Program-made: the position numbers and the translations under genes | Assembly (NCBI GenBank): GCA_903829085.1 | Contig: CAIKOL010000300.1 | Span: 1-22,341 of the forward strand | DNA: 22,341 nt | Direction: 5' to 3' | DNA from: an uncultured Anaerolineales bacterium | Lineage (GTDB): Bacteria > Chloroflexota > Anaerolineae > Anaerolineales > Villigracilaceae | The notes under the pieces: model-generated | What the model saw: only the letters and a program-made list of their open reading frames with translations | Database searches by the model: none | What the model was told of the DNA's origin: nothing | Part shown: positions 1 to 8,598 of the stretch, piece by piece | Layout: each line of letters begins with the position of its first letter | How positions within the stretch are numbered: the first letter of the stretch is position 1

Positions 1-3000
1 CCACGTCTTCCACGGTGGCGCCCTCAGGAAAATTGATCGTTTTGGATAGCGAATTGTCTACAAACGACTGGAGAGCAGCCTGCATATGGACATGTTCTTC
101 AGCAGAAATATCGCCTGCCACCACAAACACATTGCGCAGGGCTTCAGGGAGTTCAGGGATATCCTGGCAGGTGCCGTGCTGCATTACCCGTTCGATGATT
201 TCCTGGCGTGCTTCCCCGTTGATCCCGGCCTTTTCCAACGCCAGGTCAAAGCGCGGGCTGGCATAAGTAAGTTGCAGATCCTTGCCGTTGTCGTTGACAT
301 GGCGCACATACGCCAGGGCGAAGACCGGTTCACAACCGTACCCTTCGCAACCGGCGACCGTGGCGATCGTGCCAGTGGGAGCCACGGTGGTCTGGGCGGC
401 ATTGCGAATGCCATATTTCTGGATCCCTTCCCGGATCCCATCCCAATCCAGAACCGGCCGCCCCCATTGACCTGTGTACGGTTTCAGTGGTTGAGGCGGC
501 TGCCAGAGTAGTTTCTCAAAGTCGTAGATGCTGCCCTTGATGGCTGGGAAGGCCCCGCGCTCGCGTGCCAAATCCACACTAGTGTGCATGGCATGGAAAC
601 GAACGAACTCCATCACCTGCTCCCCGAACTCCTCTCCTTCCGGTGAGCCGTAGCGCACCCCTGCATGATACATCACATCTGCCAGTCCCATGATTCCCAA
701 CCCGATGCGGCGCGCCCTGTGGGCCGCCTCCTTCAGTTGAGGCACCGCCGGGACATATGCGTTGATATCAACGACATCATCCAGGAAGCGGGTGGCGGAT
801 TCAACACTTTGACGCAGGCCTTCCCAATCCACCTGTCCATCCGCTGCGCAGTGTTCGGCCAAGTTGACCGAACCCAGGCAACAGTTCTCGTAAGGCCCGA
901 GCCATTGTTCGCCGCAGCCCTTGGAAACAAACCCTTCGGTAATCCAGGTATCACTTTTCGGTTCATAAAGATCGTATACAGTTGCCCTTCCTGCCGGTTC
1001 GATGTTTACGACTTTTGCTGCCCAGTTTCCACCAGTAAAGTTCGTTTTGAGAGCAGCCTCTTCCATTCGCATTTGTTTCGCGGGATGGCTCAGGTGGATT
1101 TGTTCAAAGAATCTACCAAAACTTTCGCCTGATACTGTAACATCATGCTTGGGCCGGTCATAACGGATCGTGCGACCGTTAATATCATGGCGCGTGCGCT
1201 CACTTGTATTAATACGGGCGTAAATACCAAACATGAGCAGAGTGCGGCGTACTTGGCGTGCTAATTCAAAACTGGATGTGTGGAACCGGACTAAAGGATG
1301 GTTGCTCTGCAAATCGACGCTTCCATCCGTGGAAAAAAGGCCATCCAATAATCCTTCCAAGAATTCACGATTACTGTTTAAGTACACATCCGGAATTTGC
1401 TTTTCCGGACCTCGCGCAGGCACAAGCGGCAGGGATTTAACCCAGTTTGCTACCACGCGACCGGGTTTTGGATCCATCATCATGGAACGGCTGCCTTCAT
1501 TAACATAGGTAGACATCTTTTCTGCGCCAATTTTGGCAAACGCATTCATCAAAGTCTCGTTCCATTCATGTTCATCCGCATGGCTGCTGATGCGAACAAC
1601 ATTCTTGGAAAGTGCATGGGGGGTATAACAACCATCACCCACCAATACACCCACCAAAAACCCATATTCCCGGTCGTTGATATTATCCGATCGCCCGGGA
1701 ACTTCGTTGTCGGGGACAGCGGCCCGATAAACCCTGATCCAATCGCCTTCCTTGAGCTGGTCCAGTCGACGTTGCTCAAAGAATTTTGTCCGGGAATCGC
1801 GCGCATGGAACTGATGGGAGGCAGTTACACGCACAACCGCGCCATCAGATAGATGCAGGTCATAAACCGGCATGTTCTCATTCACTTCGACTGTTGCGAC
1901 CCGCCCCACCCCAAGGACCGTGCAGATCTCGTCACCCTCTTCTATGCTATCCGCTCGTTTCCAACCCAAAGGGGTGGCAACAAGCGTTTCACCTGTCACA
2001 CATGGATTCGTTGCCTCGAGCGGATACAGGTGTGGGACTGGGTTGCTGCGGTTGGCCGCATCCAGGAACAATAATCCCGGCTCTCCATTGTGGTGTGCCT
2101 GGCTGACAATTTTGGCAAATAGCTCGGCAGCCCGTACCGTTTTATAGGTGCGCAGCGGGATGCCCTTGGCTCTGGCCTGTTCCGGGGTGCCGCTGAAACC
2201 GCGGTATTCCGGTGCGGTTACATCCGGGAAGACCAGATCCCAGTCGGCGTTGTTCTTGACAGCCTGCATGAAGGCATCGGTGATGCCAACCGAAATATTG
2301 AAGTTGGTGATCTGGTTCTCATTGGTCTTGCAATTGACAAATTCTTCGATATCGGGATGATCCACGCGCAGGACACCCATGTTAGCACCACGGCGGGTAT
2401 TGTGCGTAACCAGACCGTTCGCCAGGTAGGTATGATTGCCTTCCACTTCAAGATCCAGAGTCAAGGCTTGGCCTTCGGGTTGGATATCCGATACCTGCAC
2501 GAACCATTTGTCGGCGGTGGAAACCGCGTGAGCGGCGAAGGCAGGATATGCCAAAGTAAGTTCGTCATAGGAGGAACGGGTCAGGTGGCGGTCCCCGCGC
2601 ATGTATCGTAGAAGACCACGCCGGAGGCGGGGCTCCTCGCTGTGGAATTTAAGACCGAGGCCACGACCTTGTTGATCACCCTGTTCAAGCGTGATCGCCT
2701 CCAGGACAGGTTTAAGCCAATAGCGGGCATTCGGCAGAATAAAACTTTGCTCGCGCCCGAGGTCGCTCTCCCAGGTCATACACGCCATAAAGCGCGAACG
2801 CGGATCACAGCCGATCTGCTTCCGCCATGCCTGTAGACCTGCATTGCTGTGAATGCGTATGTGGAAAGCATCATTCTTCCCATAATGGGAGGAACCTGGA
2901 GTAACCTTCCAAATCCGCACCGGGCAGCCCAGCCCGATGAGAAGAGTCGAGACTTCATCCACCAGATGAGAAGAGGTTGTCGTAAGGTCAGGATATCCAT

Positions 3001-4297
3001 ACGATACCGTGCCATCCGCTTCGAACAAACCGCGCAAAAATGCACCGACAATATTGGCAGGAGACTGACGGATAAGTCTCGGTACCGAAGCGCTGATACT
3101 TCGGTTTTTCAGTAACCCATTTAATTGCAGGAAATCCTTGACGGCACGATTGTCCATCACCAGCATGACGGAACGATCATTTTGTTTTTGCTGGGAGTGA
3201 ACGGTAACGCCAAATAACCTTTCCATGAGGGCAGGCATGTCTTCCATCAAGTAGGACTCATGGCTAACACTGACACCCACTCTATGGTCATCATCCCCAG
3301 CAGCAACAAATCCATCCCCGATCAGATAACCGATAAAAAAGGCAAGTTCCTCATCCAGGATGGGAGGCAGAAGCGGCCAATTTTGATTACCATGAGACTG
3401 CTCAGGGTGACGGAGAGCGCGTAGTTTTCCCTGGTGTTGACCCAATTGAACGAGCAACCAATCCCCAGGGTGCAGATCGCTCAATGCTCGCCAGACCGGG
3501 CCTTCGTCGCTCATCACTTTGACTTTGTGTTCAGGGGTTCCTGCCAGGCTCAATCCTTGCCGGGTGTGGACGCGCAGGATGTCCGCTATTCCATTATTAA
3601 AAGTACTCGGCGAAAGGCGCATGCCTTCATCCGTGGCTATTTGCAAAGAGTTCGCCTGCCAACCCGGCTGATCCACATCAACCAGTTCATCCAAACGGAG
3701 TAAACCATTTTCGGTGAAGACCAGGGTTTCGGGCAGAAGACAGCCTCCCTGAGCCACCTCGCCGAAGGCATGGTCATAAACTCGCAAGAACCCCACGGGA
3801 CCGGTTGCCTGCCCCGCGGATGATTTGACAAGCGCCCCCTTTGGCCGCAGACGAGAAAATGAGAAGCCGTTCCCGCCGCCGGTTTGTTGGATTAATGCCG
3901 CATCCCGCAGGGATTGGAAGATGCCTGCCGGGTCGCGGCCCATATCATCAGAGATCGGGATTACAAAACATGCAGCCAGCTGTCCCAGCGGCGTACCCGC
4001 ACCAGTAAAAGTGGGAGAATTGGGAAAGAATTTCCTGGAAGTCAACAAAACATAAAACTCGCGGGCGCGAGCCAGTACGTCGCCAAAATAAGCTTCCTCA
4101 GCTTTGGCGATATGCCAGGCCACCCGCCAGAACATCTCCTCAACGGTTTCGGCCGGATTCCCATCATCGTCCCGGCGGACATACCGACGCACCAACACCT
4201 GGCGGGCATTCTCGGTCAATTCCACACCAGGGAGGTCGCTTGGGACCGGAGGGGTGGACAGTATTTTCTTGTTTAAGACGGTTGTCGTCGCAGCCAT
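1..4297 (-). CDS. nrdJ: Class II (adenosylcobalamin-dependent) ribonucleotide reductase NrdJ. The 3' end is cut by the window edge and the frame is interrupted by two inteins.
   Basis: Hand translation from ATG 4297..4295 (GGAG 9 nt upstream) stays open for 1,432 codons down to position 2. It is absent from the ORF track because no stop lies in the window. Extein motifs: [132 protein letters not shown]. It lies directly downstream of nrdR. Confidence 0.93.
917..2002 (-). mobile_element. Intein 2 of NrdJ (362 aa), Hint plus LAGLIDADG domains, with a non-canonical C-terminal Lys-Gly junction
   Basis: It is inserted between ...YPLEATNP and [12 protein letters not shown]. It starts [14 protein letters not shown] (Cys1 codon 2002..2000) and has block B VTASHQF (TxxH). 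LAGLIDADG motifs are [14 protein letters not shown] and [16 protein letters not shown]. It ends [23 protein letters not shown] (Gly codon 919..917), followed by Cys+1 at 916..914. Sampled intein lines have lower GC than extein lines (line 1321-1380 about 38 percent, line 301-360 about 67 percent). Confidence 0.8.
2399..3742 (-). mobile_element. Intein 1 of NrdJ (448 aa), canonical Hint domain plus LAGLIDADG homing-endonuclease domain
   Basis: It is inserted between ...FGEVAQGG and TRRGANMG. It starts [13 protein letters not shown] (Cys1 codon 3742..3740) and has a block B-like GTPEHKV (TxxH). Two LAGLIDADG motifs are present: [14 protein letters not shown] and [16 protein letters not shown]. 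It ends [20 protein letters not shown] (Asn codon 2401..2399), followed by Thr+1. Confidence 0.9.
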
Positions 4298-4410: not shown

Positions 4411-4863
4411 TTATGCTTCTAACAAAAGGCGGTCAATCTCGTTACGCAGAGCGTGCAAATCATCCAGCCGCAGGTAGACGATGGCATAGCGGATGTAGGC
4501 GATCTGGTCCAGTTCCTTCAATCCCTTGATGACCAGGTCGCCAACAATACGCGACGAAATCTCAGATTTGCCCTGGCGCTGAAGAGCCGCTTCCACCTGC
4601 CCCAACAACCGCTCAATATCCGCGGCGGAAACCGGGCGTTTGGCACAGGCGATGCGGATACCGCGTTCCAATTTCCCCCGTTCAAACTCTTCGCGGGTCC
4701 CATCCTGCTTGACGATCAAAGGAGTTGCCAGGATCGGACGTTCATAACTGCTGAATCTTTGTCCACATTTCAGGCATTCCCGCCGGCGGCGTATGCCTCC
4801 GTGACTGTCGTGGGTGGTATCGATTACTTTCGAGTCGTCGTTCTGGCAGTATGGACAACGCAT
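4411..4863 (-). CDS. nrdR: Transcriptional repressor NrdR (zinc ribbon plus ATP-cone)
   Basis: MRCPYCQNDDSKVIDT...ECLKCGQRFSSYE gives CxxC...CxxC, followed by ATP-cone-like sequence. The track ORF begins at GTG 4872. ATG 4863 gives the canonical MRCPYC N-terminus and has GGAG 8 nt upstream. Confidence 0.93.
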   Translation of the reverse strand: MRCPYCQNDDSKVIDTTHDSHGGIRRRRECLKCGQRFSSYERPILATPLIVKQDGTREEFERGKLERGIRIACAKRPVSAADIERLLGQVEAALQRQGKSEISSRIVGDLVIKGLKELDQIAYIRYAIVYLRLDDLHALRNEIDRLLLEA

Positions 4864-4897
4864 GAATAGCACTCCGTGAAATTTAGAACAAATGTAG

Positions 4898-5178: not shown

Positions 5179-5212
5179 TACCTTGATCACCCATTCCGTT
5201 CAAGGAGTCGGT

Positions 5213-5620
5213 ATGAATACTGTCATTGTATTGGTCATTATTCTGATTCCCGCCCTCCTGGTTGCCCTCCTGATCACACGTATGAACCGCAGCCAGTGGC
5301 GCCGCGTACAGGAAATGAAGGGGAAAGATACGGAATTGGAGGGCGGCTTCCTCCAGGCGATCGCAGCAGGAGCGATTGTGATCAGTAAGAGCGAGACCAT
5401 TGTCCCCAACGCGGGCGGGTATGCCAAAGTTGACCTACAGGTGGAAGTGCAACTATCCGGTAAAGCGCCTTACCAGGTGTCCACCTGTTGGCTGGTGGAG
5501 CTGGATTCGTTGAACCAGGTGCTGCCTGGTAAGAATGTGCCGGTTAAAGTGAATCCAAAAAAACCGCTCAAGGTTTTCCCAAATGTCCCCTGGGCAAAAC
5601 TCTGGGTTTTTGGGAATTAA
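5213..5620 (+). CDS. Small membrane-anchored protein of unknown function: one N-terminal TM helix plus a beta-rich domain with a DUF3592-like pattern
   Basis: AAGGAG lies 5 nt upstream of ATG 5213. The track ORF starts at the in-frame TTG 5183, which has no SD. The N-terminus is MNTVIVLVIILIPALLVALLI. The C-terminal ...LPGKNVPVKVNPKKP resembles the 'G..V.V.Y.P..P' signature of DUF3592, judged by eye only. Confidence 0.65.
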   Translation: MNTVIVLVIILIPALLVALLITRMNRSQWRRVQEMKGKDTELEGGFLQAIAAGAIVISKSETIVPNAGGYAKVDLQVEVQLSGKAPYQVSTCWLVELDSLNQVLPGKNVPVKVNPKKPLKVFPNVPWAKLWVFGN

Positions 5621-5623
5621 TCC

Positions 5624-6133
5624 ATGCCAATTGTCGAGTTCCAAACCCAACCAGGCGAAAGCATTTTGTTTCGCACCTCCCCCAACCGTAAATGGTATGT
5701 CATTGCCTGGAAGATCGGCAGCGGTATGGTGGGCATTACCATTTTGACATTTATCATCTACTCACTGCTCGCAAACCCAACCGAGGCTGCTTTCAATTCC
5801 TTTCTGCCAGCCTGGGTAGCCAGTTTGCTGACAAATGCGCTCTACCTGGGACTGGTTCCCCTGGCAGCCACCGCCTGGGTGGTAGAAGATGTGGTCTGTG
5901 CATTTATCGGCCAGATCATTTTGACTGACCAGCGCGTCTGGGTGCGCGGTTCTCCTTATGCGTGGACATTAGGTGAAACAACCCTTGATGACATTGTTTC
6001 GCTGACATGGCGGCGGGATGCCATTTTTATCAGGCAAAAGTCCACACGCAAGATCCAGGTTCATATGTTTCCAGAGGGTAAGTTATTCGTGAAGGCGTAC
6101 GAGCAATTCTTTGGAAAGACAAAAGAGAATTGA
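5624..6133 (+). CDS. Two-TM membrane protein with a possible C-terminal bacterial PH-like (YdbS/bPH_2-like) domain
   Basis: Its ATG lies 3 nt after the upstream stop, suggesting translational coupling. Hydrophobic segments are SGMVGITILTFIIYSLLA and PAWVASLLTNALYLGLVPLAATAWVV. The following ILTDQRVWVRG...IVSLTWRRDAIFIRQKSTRKIQVHMFPEG is consistent with a bPH fold. This is pattern recognition only. Confidence 0.6.
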   Translation: MPIVEFQTQPGESILFRTSPNRKWYVIAWKIGSGMVGITILTFIIYSLLANPTEAAFNSFLPAWVASLLTNALYLGLVPLAATAWVVEDVVCAFIGQIILTDQRVWVRGSPYAWTLGETTLDDIVSLTWRRDAIFIRQKSTRKIQVHMFPEGKLFVKAYEQFFGKTKEN

Positions 6134-7149: not shown

Positions 7150-8598
7150 TTATTGTCTCTTTGCTTCCTGCCACAACGCTTCCATCTCATCAATGGACAT
7201 ATCCGAAAGTTTTCGGCCTTGTTTTTTCGCTCCCTGTTCCACATAAGCGAATCGCTTTTTGAAACGCATGCTGGTCCCCCGCAAAGCAGCCTCGGCATCC
7301 ACCTTCTTCCAGCGCGCCAGGTTCACCAGCGCAAAGAACAGGTCACCCATTTCGGCGATCAGTTCCTCCTGGTTGGTCACCTCCCGTACTTCCTGGATCT
7401 CTTCATTGATTTTATCCAGGACACCGCTGACTTCCTTCCAGTCAAACCCGACCCGCGCGGCCCGATCCTGGTATTCCTGCGCCTGTGAGAGCGCCGGGAG
7501 TGCCAGGGGAACACCGTCCAGCAGGCCTTTTTCCGGCTCGTGGCTGTTGGAGCGTTCCACCGCCTTGAGCTTTTCCCAGTTCGTCAAAACCCCCTGAACA
7601 CCGTCCAGCTTTACATCCCCAAAGACGTGGGGATGACGACGAATGATCTTGTCATAAATACCTTTGAGCACATCCGCCATGGTGAAATCACCGTCTTCAC
7701 CAGCGATTTGCGCATTCAAGACGATTTGCAGTAGCAGGTCGCCAAATTCCTCAGCCATTTCCGCCGGGTTGCCGGAATCCATCGCCGCCAGTACTTCGTA
7801 AGCTTCCCCCATCAAATGGTTGCGTAGAGACTCGTGCGTCTGCTCGCGGTCCCAGGGACAGCCATCCGGGGCACGCAGGTGTGCCACGATCTCCTGGAAA
7901 GCTTCCAGGGATGTCCCCTCCCCCAGTGGAGGGACATACAACACGGTCAACAAACCGATGTGCTCGGAACGGTCGATCTCGTAAAGCTGGAGATCTTCAA
8001 CGATCTCATTTTCCGTCCCGGCGGAATGCACCAGGCGCACCGGGTGTTCATCCGGGTAGACAGTATTGAGTGTCATTTTGACTTCGGCAGCCACCAGCCT
8101 GGAATACACCTGTGCCACCAACACCGGCATGTCCGGAGGAAAGGCCGGAACATGCGCCTGGCTCAATTCCATGGCGTCCATCAGGAACAGGTGCGGGTAC
8201 GGGTCAAGGCCCAGAGCGGCAAAAACCGGTTCAAGGAAGGAGAGACCGCTTACAATTCTCAACGGCAAGCCTAAGGCGCGGGCTCGCTGCGCGATCTCAG
8301 GGCAGGTGGCCTCGGCTACAAAAGGGTCGCCCGGTACGGCATAAACCACACCCTGAGGGGATTTCCCCAGTTCCAGCACTTTTTCCACAATGGCAGAATA
8401 CACTTCCTCGAAGGAATCACCAGTTTCATAGATTTCATCGAAGGAATGGATTTCAAGGCCAGGTGGAAGGCTTGCAACAGTGGGATGCTGATTCGTACGC
8501 AGCCAGACCTGACCGGTAGAAGCAAGCACTTCCCAGGCTTCGCGAGTCAACTTGGCGGGGTCACCAGGGCCGAGACCGAGCAGGGTAATTCCAGGCAT
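7150..8598 (-). CDS. mazG: Tetrapyrrole-methylase-like domain fused to tandem MazG NTP-pyrophosphohydrolase domains (YabN/MazG family)
   Basis: The N-terminus MPGITLLGLGPGDPAKLT is a TP-methylase-type GxGPG motif. Two MazG repeats follow: CPWDREQTHESL...EEFGDLLLQIV and GFDWKEV...EMGDLFFALVNLARW. AAGGAG lies upstream of ATG 8598. Confidence 0.9.
   Translation of the reverse strand: MPGITLLGLGPGDPAKLTREAWEVLASTGQVWLRTNQHPTVASLPPGLEIHSFDEIYETGDSFEEVYSAIVEKVLELGKSPQGVVYAVPGDPFVAEATCPEIAQRARALGLPLRIVSGLSFLEPVFAALGLDPYPHLFLMDAMELSQAHVPAFPPDMPVLVAQVYSRLVAAEVKMTLNTVYPDEHPVRLVHSAGTENEIVEDLQLYEIDRSEHIGLLTVLYVPPLGEGTSLEAFQEIVAHLRAPDGCPWDREQTHESLRNHLMGEAYEVLAAMDSGNPAEMAEEFGDLLLQIVLNAQIAGEDGDFTMADVLKGIYDKIIRRHPHVFGDVKLDGVQGVLTNWEKLKAVERSNSHEPEKGLLDGVPLALPALSQAQEYQDRAARVGFDWKEVSGVLDKINEEIQEVREVTNQEELIAEMGDLFFALVNLARWKKVDAEAALRGTSMRFKKRFAYVEQGAKKQGRKLSDMSIDEMEALWQEAKRQ

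Follow-up and report, generated by a model that had tools for sequence, protein, structure and literature searches.

How can an intein leave its host protein when its last residue carries no side chain? The question is raised by a 22,341-nucleotide stretch of DNA from an uncultured Anaerolineales bacterium (contig CAIKOL010000300.1 of assembly GCA_903829085.1; the whole stretch is called the window below), whose minus strand encodes an nrdJ-type class II ribonucleotide reductase (RNR) with two inteins. In inteins, the C-terminal junction is cut by cyclisation of a terminal Asn, or of Gln, Asp or Glu (PMC4031507, PMC2807308, PMC10663303). The second insert of the window, intein 2, ends in Lys-Gly. 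The original prediction, made from the window alone, had offered three readings of this ending, namely a splicing-dead insertion (listed first), an intein kept for N-terminal cleavage or a regulatory role, and a Hint domain whose C-terminal end is released by some chemistry other than that of Asn. The third option is the one favoured by the evidence from related inteins. With a probability of roughly 55%, and judged from sequence, intein 2 is functional and belongs to a large, previously unrecognised clade in which the last residue does not cyclise when the C-terminal junction is resolved.

The junctions of intein 2 are fixed by the host protein (positions of all features are given in Table 1; a slash marks a splice junction). 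The nrdJ reading frame runs from ATG 4297 to the window edge over 1432 codons with zero stops in the minus-strand translation, as had been claimed earlier; it is cut by window position 1, and its C-terminal end is missing. Pfam recognises in this frame an RNR large chain and two intein/LAGLIDADG inserts. The 622-amino-acid (aa) extein, obtained by removing both inserts in silico, is colinear with NrdJ of Thermotoga maritima (PDB 1xjk, E 1.6e-103). It aligns without gaps across both intein junctions; the NPCGE region aligns to STNPCGEIGLSDYEACNLGS and the intein 1 junction region to GSRRRGALMG of 1xjk. Because of this gapless alignment, Lys-Gly does not belong to the extein, and the NP/C and G/C junctions are settled. 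The 362-aa insert lies exactly at EATNP/CGEQ of the class II RNR, and translation and the 1xjk alignment agree with the original prediction on this point. The same alignment identifies the +1 residue as the Cys of NPCGE, which we take to be the thiyl-radical cysteine of RNRs. A shifted junction was rejected: only a one-residue slide of Cys is formally possible (VTG...KGC), which leaves no +1 nucleophile and is excluded by the extein alignment. Likewise, no His-Asn is hidden in another frame near 917-930. A canonical Asn junction elsewhere was not found, and a sequencing or assembly error is excluded by the window together with 41 inteins from independently assembled genome loci, which share the Gly end and the block F Asp.

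Intein 2 combines features of class 1 inteins with an altered C-terminus. It is an in-frame insert with Cys1, Cys+1, the block B Thr/His pair, the Asp at block F position 4 (F:4) and a Hint fold. Missing are a cyclisable terminal residue (position G:7 in block G is Gly362) and the assisting His residues at F:13 and G:6, which many but not all inteins have. In the N-terminal half, the translation bears out Cys1, the start CVTGETLV and the block B motif TASH as they had been read before. Both LAGLIDADG motifs (1660-1631 and 1351-1322) keep their acidic residues in the ends GDG and TDG; by this and the PF14528 profile, the insert is a predicted intein-borne LAGLIDADG endonuclease. The Lys-Gly ending and the loss of the block F His also stand, with Lys361 and Gly362 at the end and Asp351 at F:13.

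The AlphaFold2 (AF2) model of intein 2 has a predicted local distance difference test score (pLDDT) of 75.5 and a predicted template modelling score of 0.80, and the splicing domain mostly reaches pLDDT 80-95. The best Foldseek matches are TliVMA (7qsu), PI-SceI (1ef0) and PI-PfuI (1dq3), with E values of 1e-13 to 1e-17, and the Hint domains 1at0 (Hedgehog), 2lwy and 6y75 are matched as well. The sole sequence match in the PDB is MchDnaB-1 (6rix). The tetrapeptide V-Y-D-L occurs twice, at residues 46-49 (1856..1867) and 342-345 (968..979), and each copy ends one of the two longest strands of the model. This repeat may be a sequence-level trace of the pseudo-twofold symmetry of the Hint fold.

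The Gly ending had been treated as a singular anomaly, which it is not. A genome scan with one genome per species returned 47 loci, and 41 inteins in these loci have both the Gly end and an Asp in block F, all of them free of stop codons. Their carriers are many Chloroflexota lineages, a Blastocatellia and a Daviesbacteria metagenome-assembled genome, and Methylococcales symbionts of mussels. At least seven further Gly-ending inteins are found in IMG/VR viral contigs, in open reading frames (ORFs) of about 690-1400 aa; among GenBank phage records, none was matched. The clade is found in Chloroflexota, Acidobacteriota, a candidate-phyla-radiation bacterium, gammaproteobacterial symbionts and viral contigs. 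A first homologue search had turned up many RNR fragments with the ending SDTWITEG[FY]VSRG/CGEQ, a subgroup with TLTW.TNGYCSLD/CGEQ and, at the same site, the canonical and more distant kind with THSF.ANG.VVHN/CGEQ. When 1.84 billion cluster representatives (50% identity) were searched with a profile, 150 proteins were listed, and parsing their junctions at NP/C[GAS]E revealed three kinds of intein. Dozens of the representatives end in Gly, in diverse RNR exteins.

When these inteins were pooled, the last residues of 178 inteins at the RNR NP/C site could be tabulated. Gly is the last residue in 96 of the 178, mostly preceded by Arg, and each of these 96 has Asp at F:13. The classical pair of F:13 His and terminal Asn is present in 51, Leu with terminal Asp in nine and Lys with terminal Asp in one, while the remaining 21 combine other F:13 residues with Asn or Gln at G:7. 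F:13 Asp together with a terminal Asn does not occur among the 178, nor does a terminal Gly without F:13 Asp. The coupling of the two residues is absolute in this sample.

The Gly-ending inteins also belong together when the diagnostic residues are disregarded. In a neighbour-joining tree of the splicing domains, from which F:13, G:6 and G:7 had been deleted, all 96 form one pure clade, and with the same three positions deleted the nearest neighbour is of the same class for 175 of the 178 inteins. The nearest outsiders are the Asp-ending inteins, at a distance of 0.67-0.74 compared with at least 0.77 for most canonical ones.

The residues expected to act in the first two splicing steps are kept throughout the clade (Cys1, His63, Asp344 and Cys+1 in 100%, Thr60 in 98%). 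A second set is specific to it and consists of Asp351 (100%), Thr352 (96%), Trp353 (99%), Gly362 (100%) and Glu39 (96%), giving the motif [ST]-D-T-W ... x-G/C. Position 39 is Tyr, Phe or Trp in all other inteins at the NP/C site. The penultimate residue is Arg in 76 inteins, Gln in 12, Val in seven and Lys in one; the last is intein 2 of the window, and this Lys is its only peculiarity within the clade. An essential catalytic role of the penultimate Arg was discarded since Gln, Val and Lys are also found. Cys27 in GDEICTV was considered as a protease-like nucleophile and rejected as well. Its conservation is just 44% and confined to Chloroflexota, with Ser, Tyr or Ala in its place in other phyla and in mini-inteins.

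The clade inteins range from 132 to 390 aa. Ten of the 96 are shorter than 200 aa (132-167 aa) and lack the endonuclease; they occur in at least three lineages, and all keep the Asp...Gly pair. In the protein P0027, only a degenerate endonuclease region is left, and the pair is kept too. Because mini-inteins persist without an endonuclease, splicing appears to be required for their retention. One of them, of 133 aa, sits in a RefSeq-listed methanotrophic symbiont of Bathymodiolus platifrons (L044, 9050..12293), in which a split NrdJa (849 aa) that holds the mini-intein is followed by NrdJb (227 aa). A 275-aa protein (P0018) contains a 79-aa remnant, CVTGE/LVSGDSFGRFF...YVSRG, in which the slash is not a splice junction and most of the intein from block A to where the endonuclease ends is gone; the protein stems either from an internal deletion or from a chimeric assembly.

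Three proteins carry inteins in tandem at the site (P0047, at about residues 343-1073, P0113 and P0115). In each, a canonical Asn-ending intein directly abuts Cys1 of a Gly-ending one. The first inteins end in ...LGSVLTGN, ...TDWSWTGN and ...ANGVDVSN, and from this arrangement it follows that the +1 nucleophile of the first intein is Cys1 of the second.

Purifying selection on the clade inteins is strong. The ratio of nonsynonymous to synonymous substitution rates (dN/dS), taken from 26 gapless 362-aa orthologues with dN of 0.08-0.16 and saturated dS, is about 0.05-0.08 for each of the three parts, namely the N-terminal and C-terminal splicing regions and the endonuclease (about 0.07 for the latter). 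Codon usage varies at the conserved residues of the 41 genome-locus inteins: the terminal Gly is encoded by GGA in 20, GGC in nine, GGT in nine and GGG in three, the block F Asp by GAT in 21 and GAC in 20, and the penultimate Arg by all six of its codons. In 90% of 276 orthologue pairs (the window and L001-L030), the intein has changed less at the protein level than the 300 host residues that follow it (the C-extein). For the window and its relative L001, the proportion of nonsynonymous differences is 0.066 in the intein and 0.160 in the extein. It is unusual for a supposedly selfish element, endonuclease included, to be better conserved than its host RNR with synonymous sites saturated in both. 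Recent horizontal spread was rejected as the cause of the high intein identity because the synonymous sites of the intein are saturated too.

What the conserved residues suggest is a clade that splices by a changed last step. Steps 1 and 2 would probably be canonical, with Cys1 forming a thioester helped by the block B Thr/His and the F:4 Asp, and the N-extein then passing to Cys+1. For step 3, cyclisation of the last residue is out of the question, since Gly lacks a side chain. Most likely, the functional group has been relocated, and the carboxylate of Asp351 at F:13 would sit where Gly362 leaves room for it, next to the scissile Gly-Cys bond. It could attack the Gly carbonyl, giving a transient anhydride, or activate a water molecule for hydrolysis. 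Either reaction would free the amine of Cys+1, and a final S-to-N shift would then yield intact NPCGE. Glu39 might act as a second carboxylate. The location is plausible in light of known inteins. In canonical ones, the residues at F:13 and G:6 act on the terminal Asn and the tetrahedral intermediate (Mills, Johnson and Perler 2014, PMC4031507), and class 3 inteins provide a precedent for a catalytic group moved into block F (PMC2807308). The inteins with Leu at F:13 and a terminal Asp fit the same idea, as one carboxylate would be needed at that spot and could come from either position. We infer that the functional group which the last residue lacks is probably provided by the Asp of block F.

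Several points weigh against this explanation. Attack of a carboxylate on a backbone amide, or hydrolysis of the amide by a single carboxylate, is chemically demanding and unprecedented in inteins. The curated models hardly recognise the splicing domain: Pfam Intein_splicing scores 31.7 on intein 2, under its cut-off of 35.8, and TIGR01443 for the C-terminal part gives zero match. TIGR01445 for the N-terminal part scores 14.8, under a cut-off of 24.5. Both TIGR models are passed by the internal control, intein 1 of the same nrdJ gene. As the search profiles were built from the clade, it is over-represented in the sample, and the 96 of 178 are not a census; the tree in which they form one clade was built by neighbour joining without support values.

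The alternative that survives best, although we consider it improbable, is splicing by a mirror-image route. Cys+1 would undergo an N-to-S shift on the Gly-Cys+1 bond, and its freed amine would attack the Cys1 thioester and so acquire the N-extein. This would leave an intein-Gly thioester, to be hydrolysed or else captured by Cys1, the latter giving a circular intein, with Asp351 as the general base. Hedgehog proteins process a Gly/Cys bond by such an N-to-S shift (PMC3207474); there, too, a Gly precedes the nucleophile, and in the clade this Gly is invariant. Similar chemistry is seen in Hedgehog and SEA-type autoprocessing at Gly/Cys and Gly/Ser, and the Hedgehog autoprocessing domain 1at0 is among the fold matches of intein 2. 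Amitai, Dassa and Pietrokovski (J Biol Chem 2004) reportedly saw C-terminal cleavage in the Asp-ending Chy RIR1 intein after its Asp had been mutated to Ala. Cyclisation of a side chain could not account for such cleavage, which would speak for chemistry independent of cyclisation in this wider group. The +1 residue is always Cys in the clade, but the RNR active site dictates a Cys there anyway, so its invariance is uninformative. Moreover, this route alters two steps instead of one and blocks the Cys+1 thiol that normally carries out transesterification. The strict Asp/Gly coupling, too, follows more directly from a relocated functional group than from this route.

Quite unlikely is that the intein only cleaves, at both junctions without ligation or at the N-terminal junction alone, and that the clade is conserved because the RNR is thereby made two-chain, regulated or inactivated. 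Hydrolytic chemistry at the Gly-Cys bond would be sufficient for this. Functional split RNRs do exist, as in nrdA of Aeromonas phage Aeh1 and nrdJ-a/b of Thermus phage phiYS40 (PMC3653736), and the mussel symbiont described above itself has a split NrdJa/NrdJb. However, the nick would fall within the buried finger loop, immediately ahead of the radical cysteine, and related hosts carry canonical His-Asn inteins at the same site, which restore NPCGE. The tandem inteins of three proteins make sense only when both are cleanly removed, and the conservation of Cys1, the block B Thr/His and the F:4 Asp is what ordered splicing predicts. The earlier suggestion of N-terminal cleavage or a regulatory role is less likely than splicing.

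That the C-terminal junction is opened by a factor acting in trans, for instance a protease of the host or a partner protein, is very unlikely. Every side chain known for step 3 is absent from the intein, which would be accounted for by such a factor, but carriers of the clade span four or more bacterial phyla besides viral contigs, making a common host factor unlikely, and no conserved partner gene adjoining nrdJ is evident in the window.

Finally, a decaying, splicing-dead insertion or a mistake of sequencing or assembly in codons 922..917, although suggested by the absence of the terminal Asn and both assisting His residues and by the unmatched curated C-terminal intein models, is excluded by clade-wide conservation, that is, by 41 Gly-ending inteins from independently assembled genome loci with synonymous variation at the Gly, Asp and Arg codons, dN/dS of about 0.05-0.08 with zero stop codons, a motif kept in endonuclease-free mini-inteins, and at least four base changes from His-Asn (CAY AAY) to Lys-Gly (AAG GGC).

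Among known systems, canonical class 1 inteins at the NP/C site (for example P0024, P0025 and P0029) share with the clade the insertion point, Cys1, the block B TxxH, the F:4 Asp and Cys+1, and both groups have a Hint fold with a LAGLIDADG insert; full-length identity is about 30%. The canonical C-terminus reads T-H-S-F ... V-H-N/C, whereas that of the clade reads S-D-T-W ... [RQVK]-G/C. From canonical to clade, His becomes Asp at F:13, His becomes Arg, Lys, Gln or Val at G:6, Asn becomes Gly at G:7, and the aromatic residue at position 39 becomes Glu. The Mth RIR1 mini-intein is a canonical intein at the same NP/C site with Pro at -1.

Some atypical inteins that end in Gln (Pab PolII, CIV RNR) or Asp (Chy RIR1) splice without a terminal Asn and often without an assisting His (PMC4031507). 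In these, the side chain of the last residue can still cyclise, whereas the Gly of the clade has none. The inteins with Leu at F:13 and a terminal Asp at the NP/C site are kin to these atypical cyclisable enders and share the T-W motif with the clade. As to the placement of Chy RIR1 in this Leu...Asp group, the homologue search returned no named copy of it, only unnamed metagenomic proteins.

Class 3 inteins, which have a WCT motif (mycobacteriophage Bethlehem DnaB, Msm DnaB), set an example of a mechanistic class defined by co-varying positions (PMC2807308). They differ from the clade in the step concerned: class 3 inteins have no position-1 nucleophile, a Cys at F:4 and an Asn end, whereas the clade keeps Cys1 and the F:4 Asp and has an altered last step. 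The class 3 set (Trp B:12, Cys F:4 and Thr G:5 without a position-1 nucleophile) is not found, as Cys1 is present and F:4 is Asp in 100%. Class 2 inteins of the KlbA type have Ala at position 1 and a Cys+1 that attacks the amide directly; all inteins of the clade have Cys1. Bacterial intein-like (BIL) domains lie in variable regions and often lack a +1 nucleophile, and the clade occupies the invariant NPCGE site with Cys+1. Hedgehog/Hog and BIL domains share the Hint fold with intein 2, and some BIL domains work without the canonical C-terminal set. Yet what these domains do is cleave or add a ligand, and they do not sit as precise in-frame inserts in a conserved catalytic motif, while removal of intein 2 must rebuild NPCGE. 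By predicted fold, position, Cys1, block B, F:4 and Cys+1, intein 2 is an intein that lacks the last-step feature of classes 1-3, and it is neither a BIL nor a Hog domain.

The literature consulted offers no counterpart. Intein reviews up to 2023 give only Asn, Gln, Asp and Glu as terminal residues. A Gly-ending intein is not described in the reviews of 2010, 2014, 2020 and 2023, the MEROPS paper on asparagine lyases, Dassa 2009 on split inteins from Global Ocean Sampling, or the Novikova 2016 census; subscription journals lay mostly outside this search, and an earlier mention is possible. To this extent, the original prediction was right that no intein ending in Gly has been characterised. 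In public databases, the proteins of the clade are named only "LAGLIDADG family homing endonuclease", probably because the curated intein models reject a Gly-ending C-terminus.

If biochemistry agrees, the clade would be a new mechanistic intein class. We regard it as an even call whether the Asp(F:13)...Gly inteins form a fourth class that splices efficiently without a cyclisable end or assisting His, by way of the block F carboxylate or of a mirror-image N-to-S shift, perhaps with a circular intein as product. MEROPS counts inteins as asparagine peptide lyases because the last step in classes 1-3 is cyclisation of the terminal residue. Should the clade splice as proposed, this step could be achieved in another way, and the definition of an intein would have to be revised. 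It would also explain the endonuclease-only annotation, and intein censuses probably miss the clade. For protein engineers, it would provide mini-inteins of 132-143 aa with a different C-terminal chemistry, which might leave no succinimide, respond differently to pH or exteins, or open a way to cyclisation. The strict Asp/Gly coupling singles out the residues to mutate, and the question could be tested with few constructs.

Table 1. Positions of nrdJ, its inteins and their key residues, and nrdR in the window
Feature	Position	Strand	Evidence or remark
nrdJ-type class II RNR gene, two inteins	2..4297	minus	Pfam Ribonuc_red_lgC 1.6e-115, Ribonuc_red_lgN 1.6e-22
Intein 1, 448 aa, canonical GG/CLLPETLV...LVTHN/TRRGA	2399..3742	minus	TIGR01443 29.3 bits, TIGR01445 27.3 bits
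Intein 2, 362 aa, NP/CGE finger-loop site	917..2002	minus	Translation, extein alignment, clade membership
Cys1, N-terminal nucleophile, TGT	2000..2002	minus	100% in clade
Glu39, clade-specific acidic residue	1886..1888	minus	96% in clade
Block B TASH (Thr60, His63)	1814..1825	minus	Clade: Thr 98%, His 100%
LAGLIDADG homing-endonuclease core	1322..1660	minus	PF14528, 56.9 bits
Block F	935..982	minus	F:4 Asp344 kept; F:13 is Asp351 (GAT 952-950), not His; then Thr-Trp
Block G GFVSKG	917..934	minus	Penultimate Lys361 (AAG 922-920), terminal Gly362 (GGC 919-917)
Cys+1, first C-extein residue, TGC	914..916	minus	Aligns with Cys of NPCGE in T. maritima NrdJ
nrdR, RNR transcriptional repressor	4411..4872	minus	Zn_ribbon_NrdR 2.2e-17, ATP-cone 8e-19

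Intein 1 at the GG/TRRGA site is found in only about nine of 32 related loci with a readable site (L001-L038), and such patchy occurrence is the usual pattern of mobile inteins. Some relatives carry extra inteins. In one (L018), an intein follows NSLSK/C, some ORFs reach up to 2083 aa, and one cluster representative has seven intein-like stretches.

The nrdR gene lies directly upstream of nrdJ. No second RNR gene is present within the 22-kb window. Beyond nrdR follows a core chromosomal block with a MazG fusion, truA, rpoA, rpsD, map, adk, secY, rpsE, rplF, rplE and rpsC. The MazG fusion is a 482-aa ORF (7150..8598, minus strand) in which a tetrapyrrole-methylase-type domain is joined to MazG and PRA-PH pyrophosphohydrolase domains. 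Between nrdR and this gene, two neighbouring ORFs of 145 and 169 aa (5183..6133, plus strand) have hydrophobic stretches and no Pfam match.

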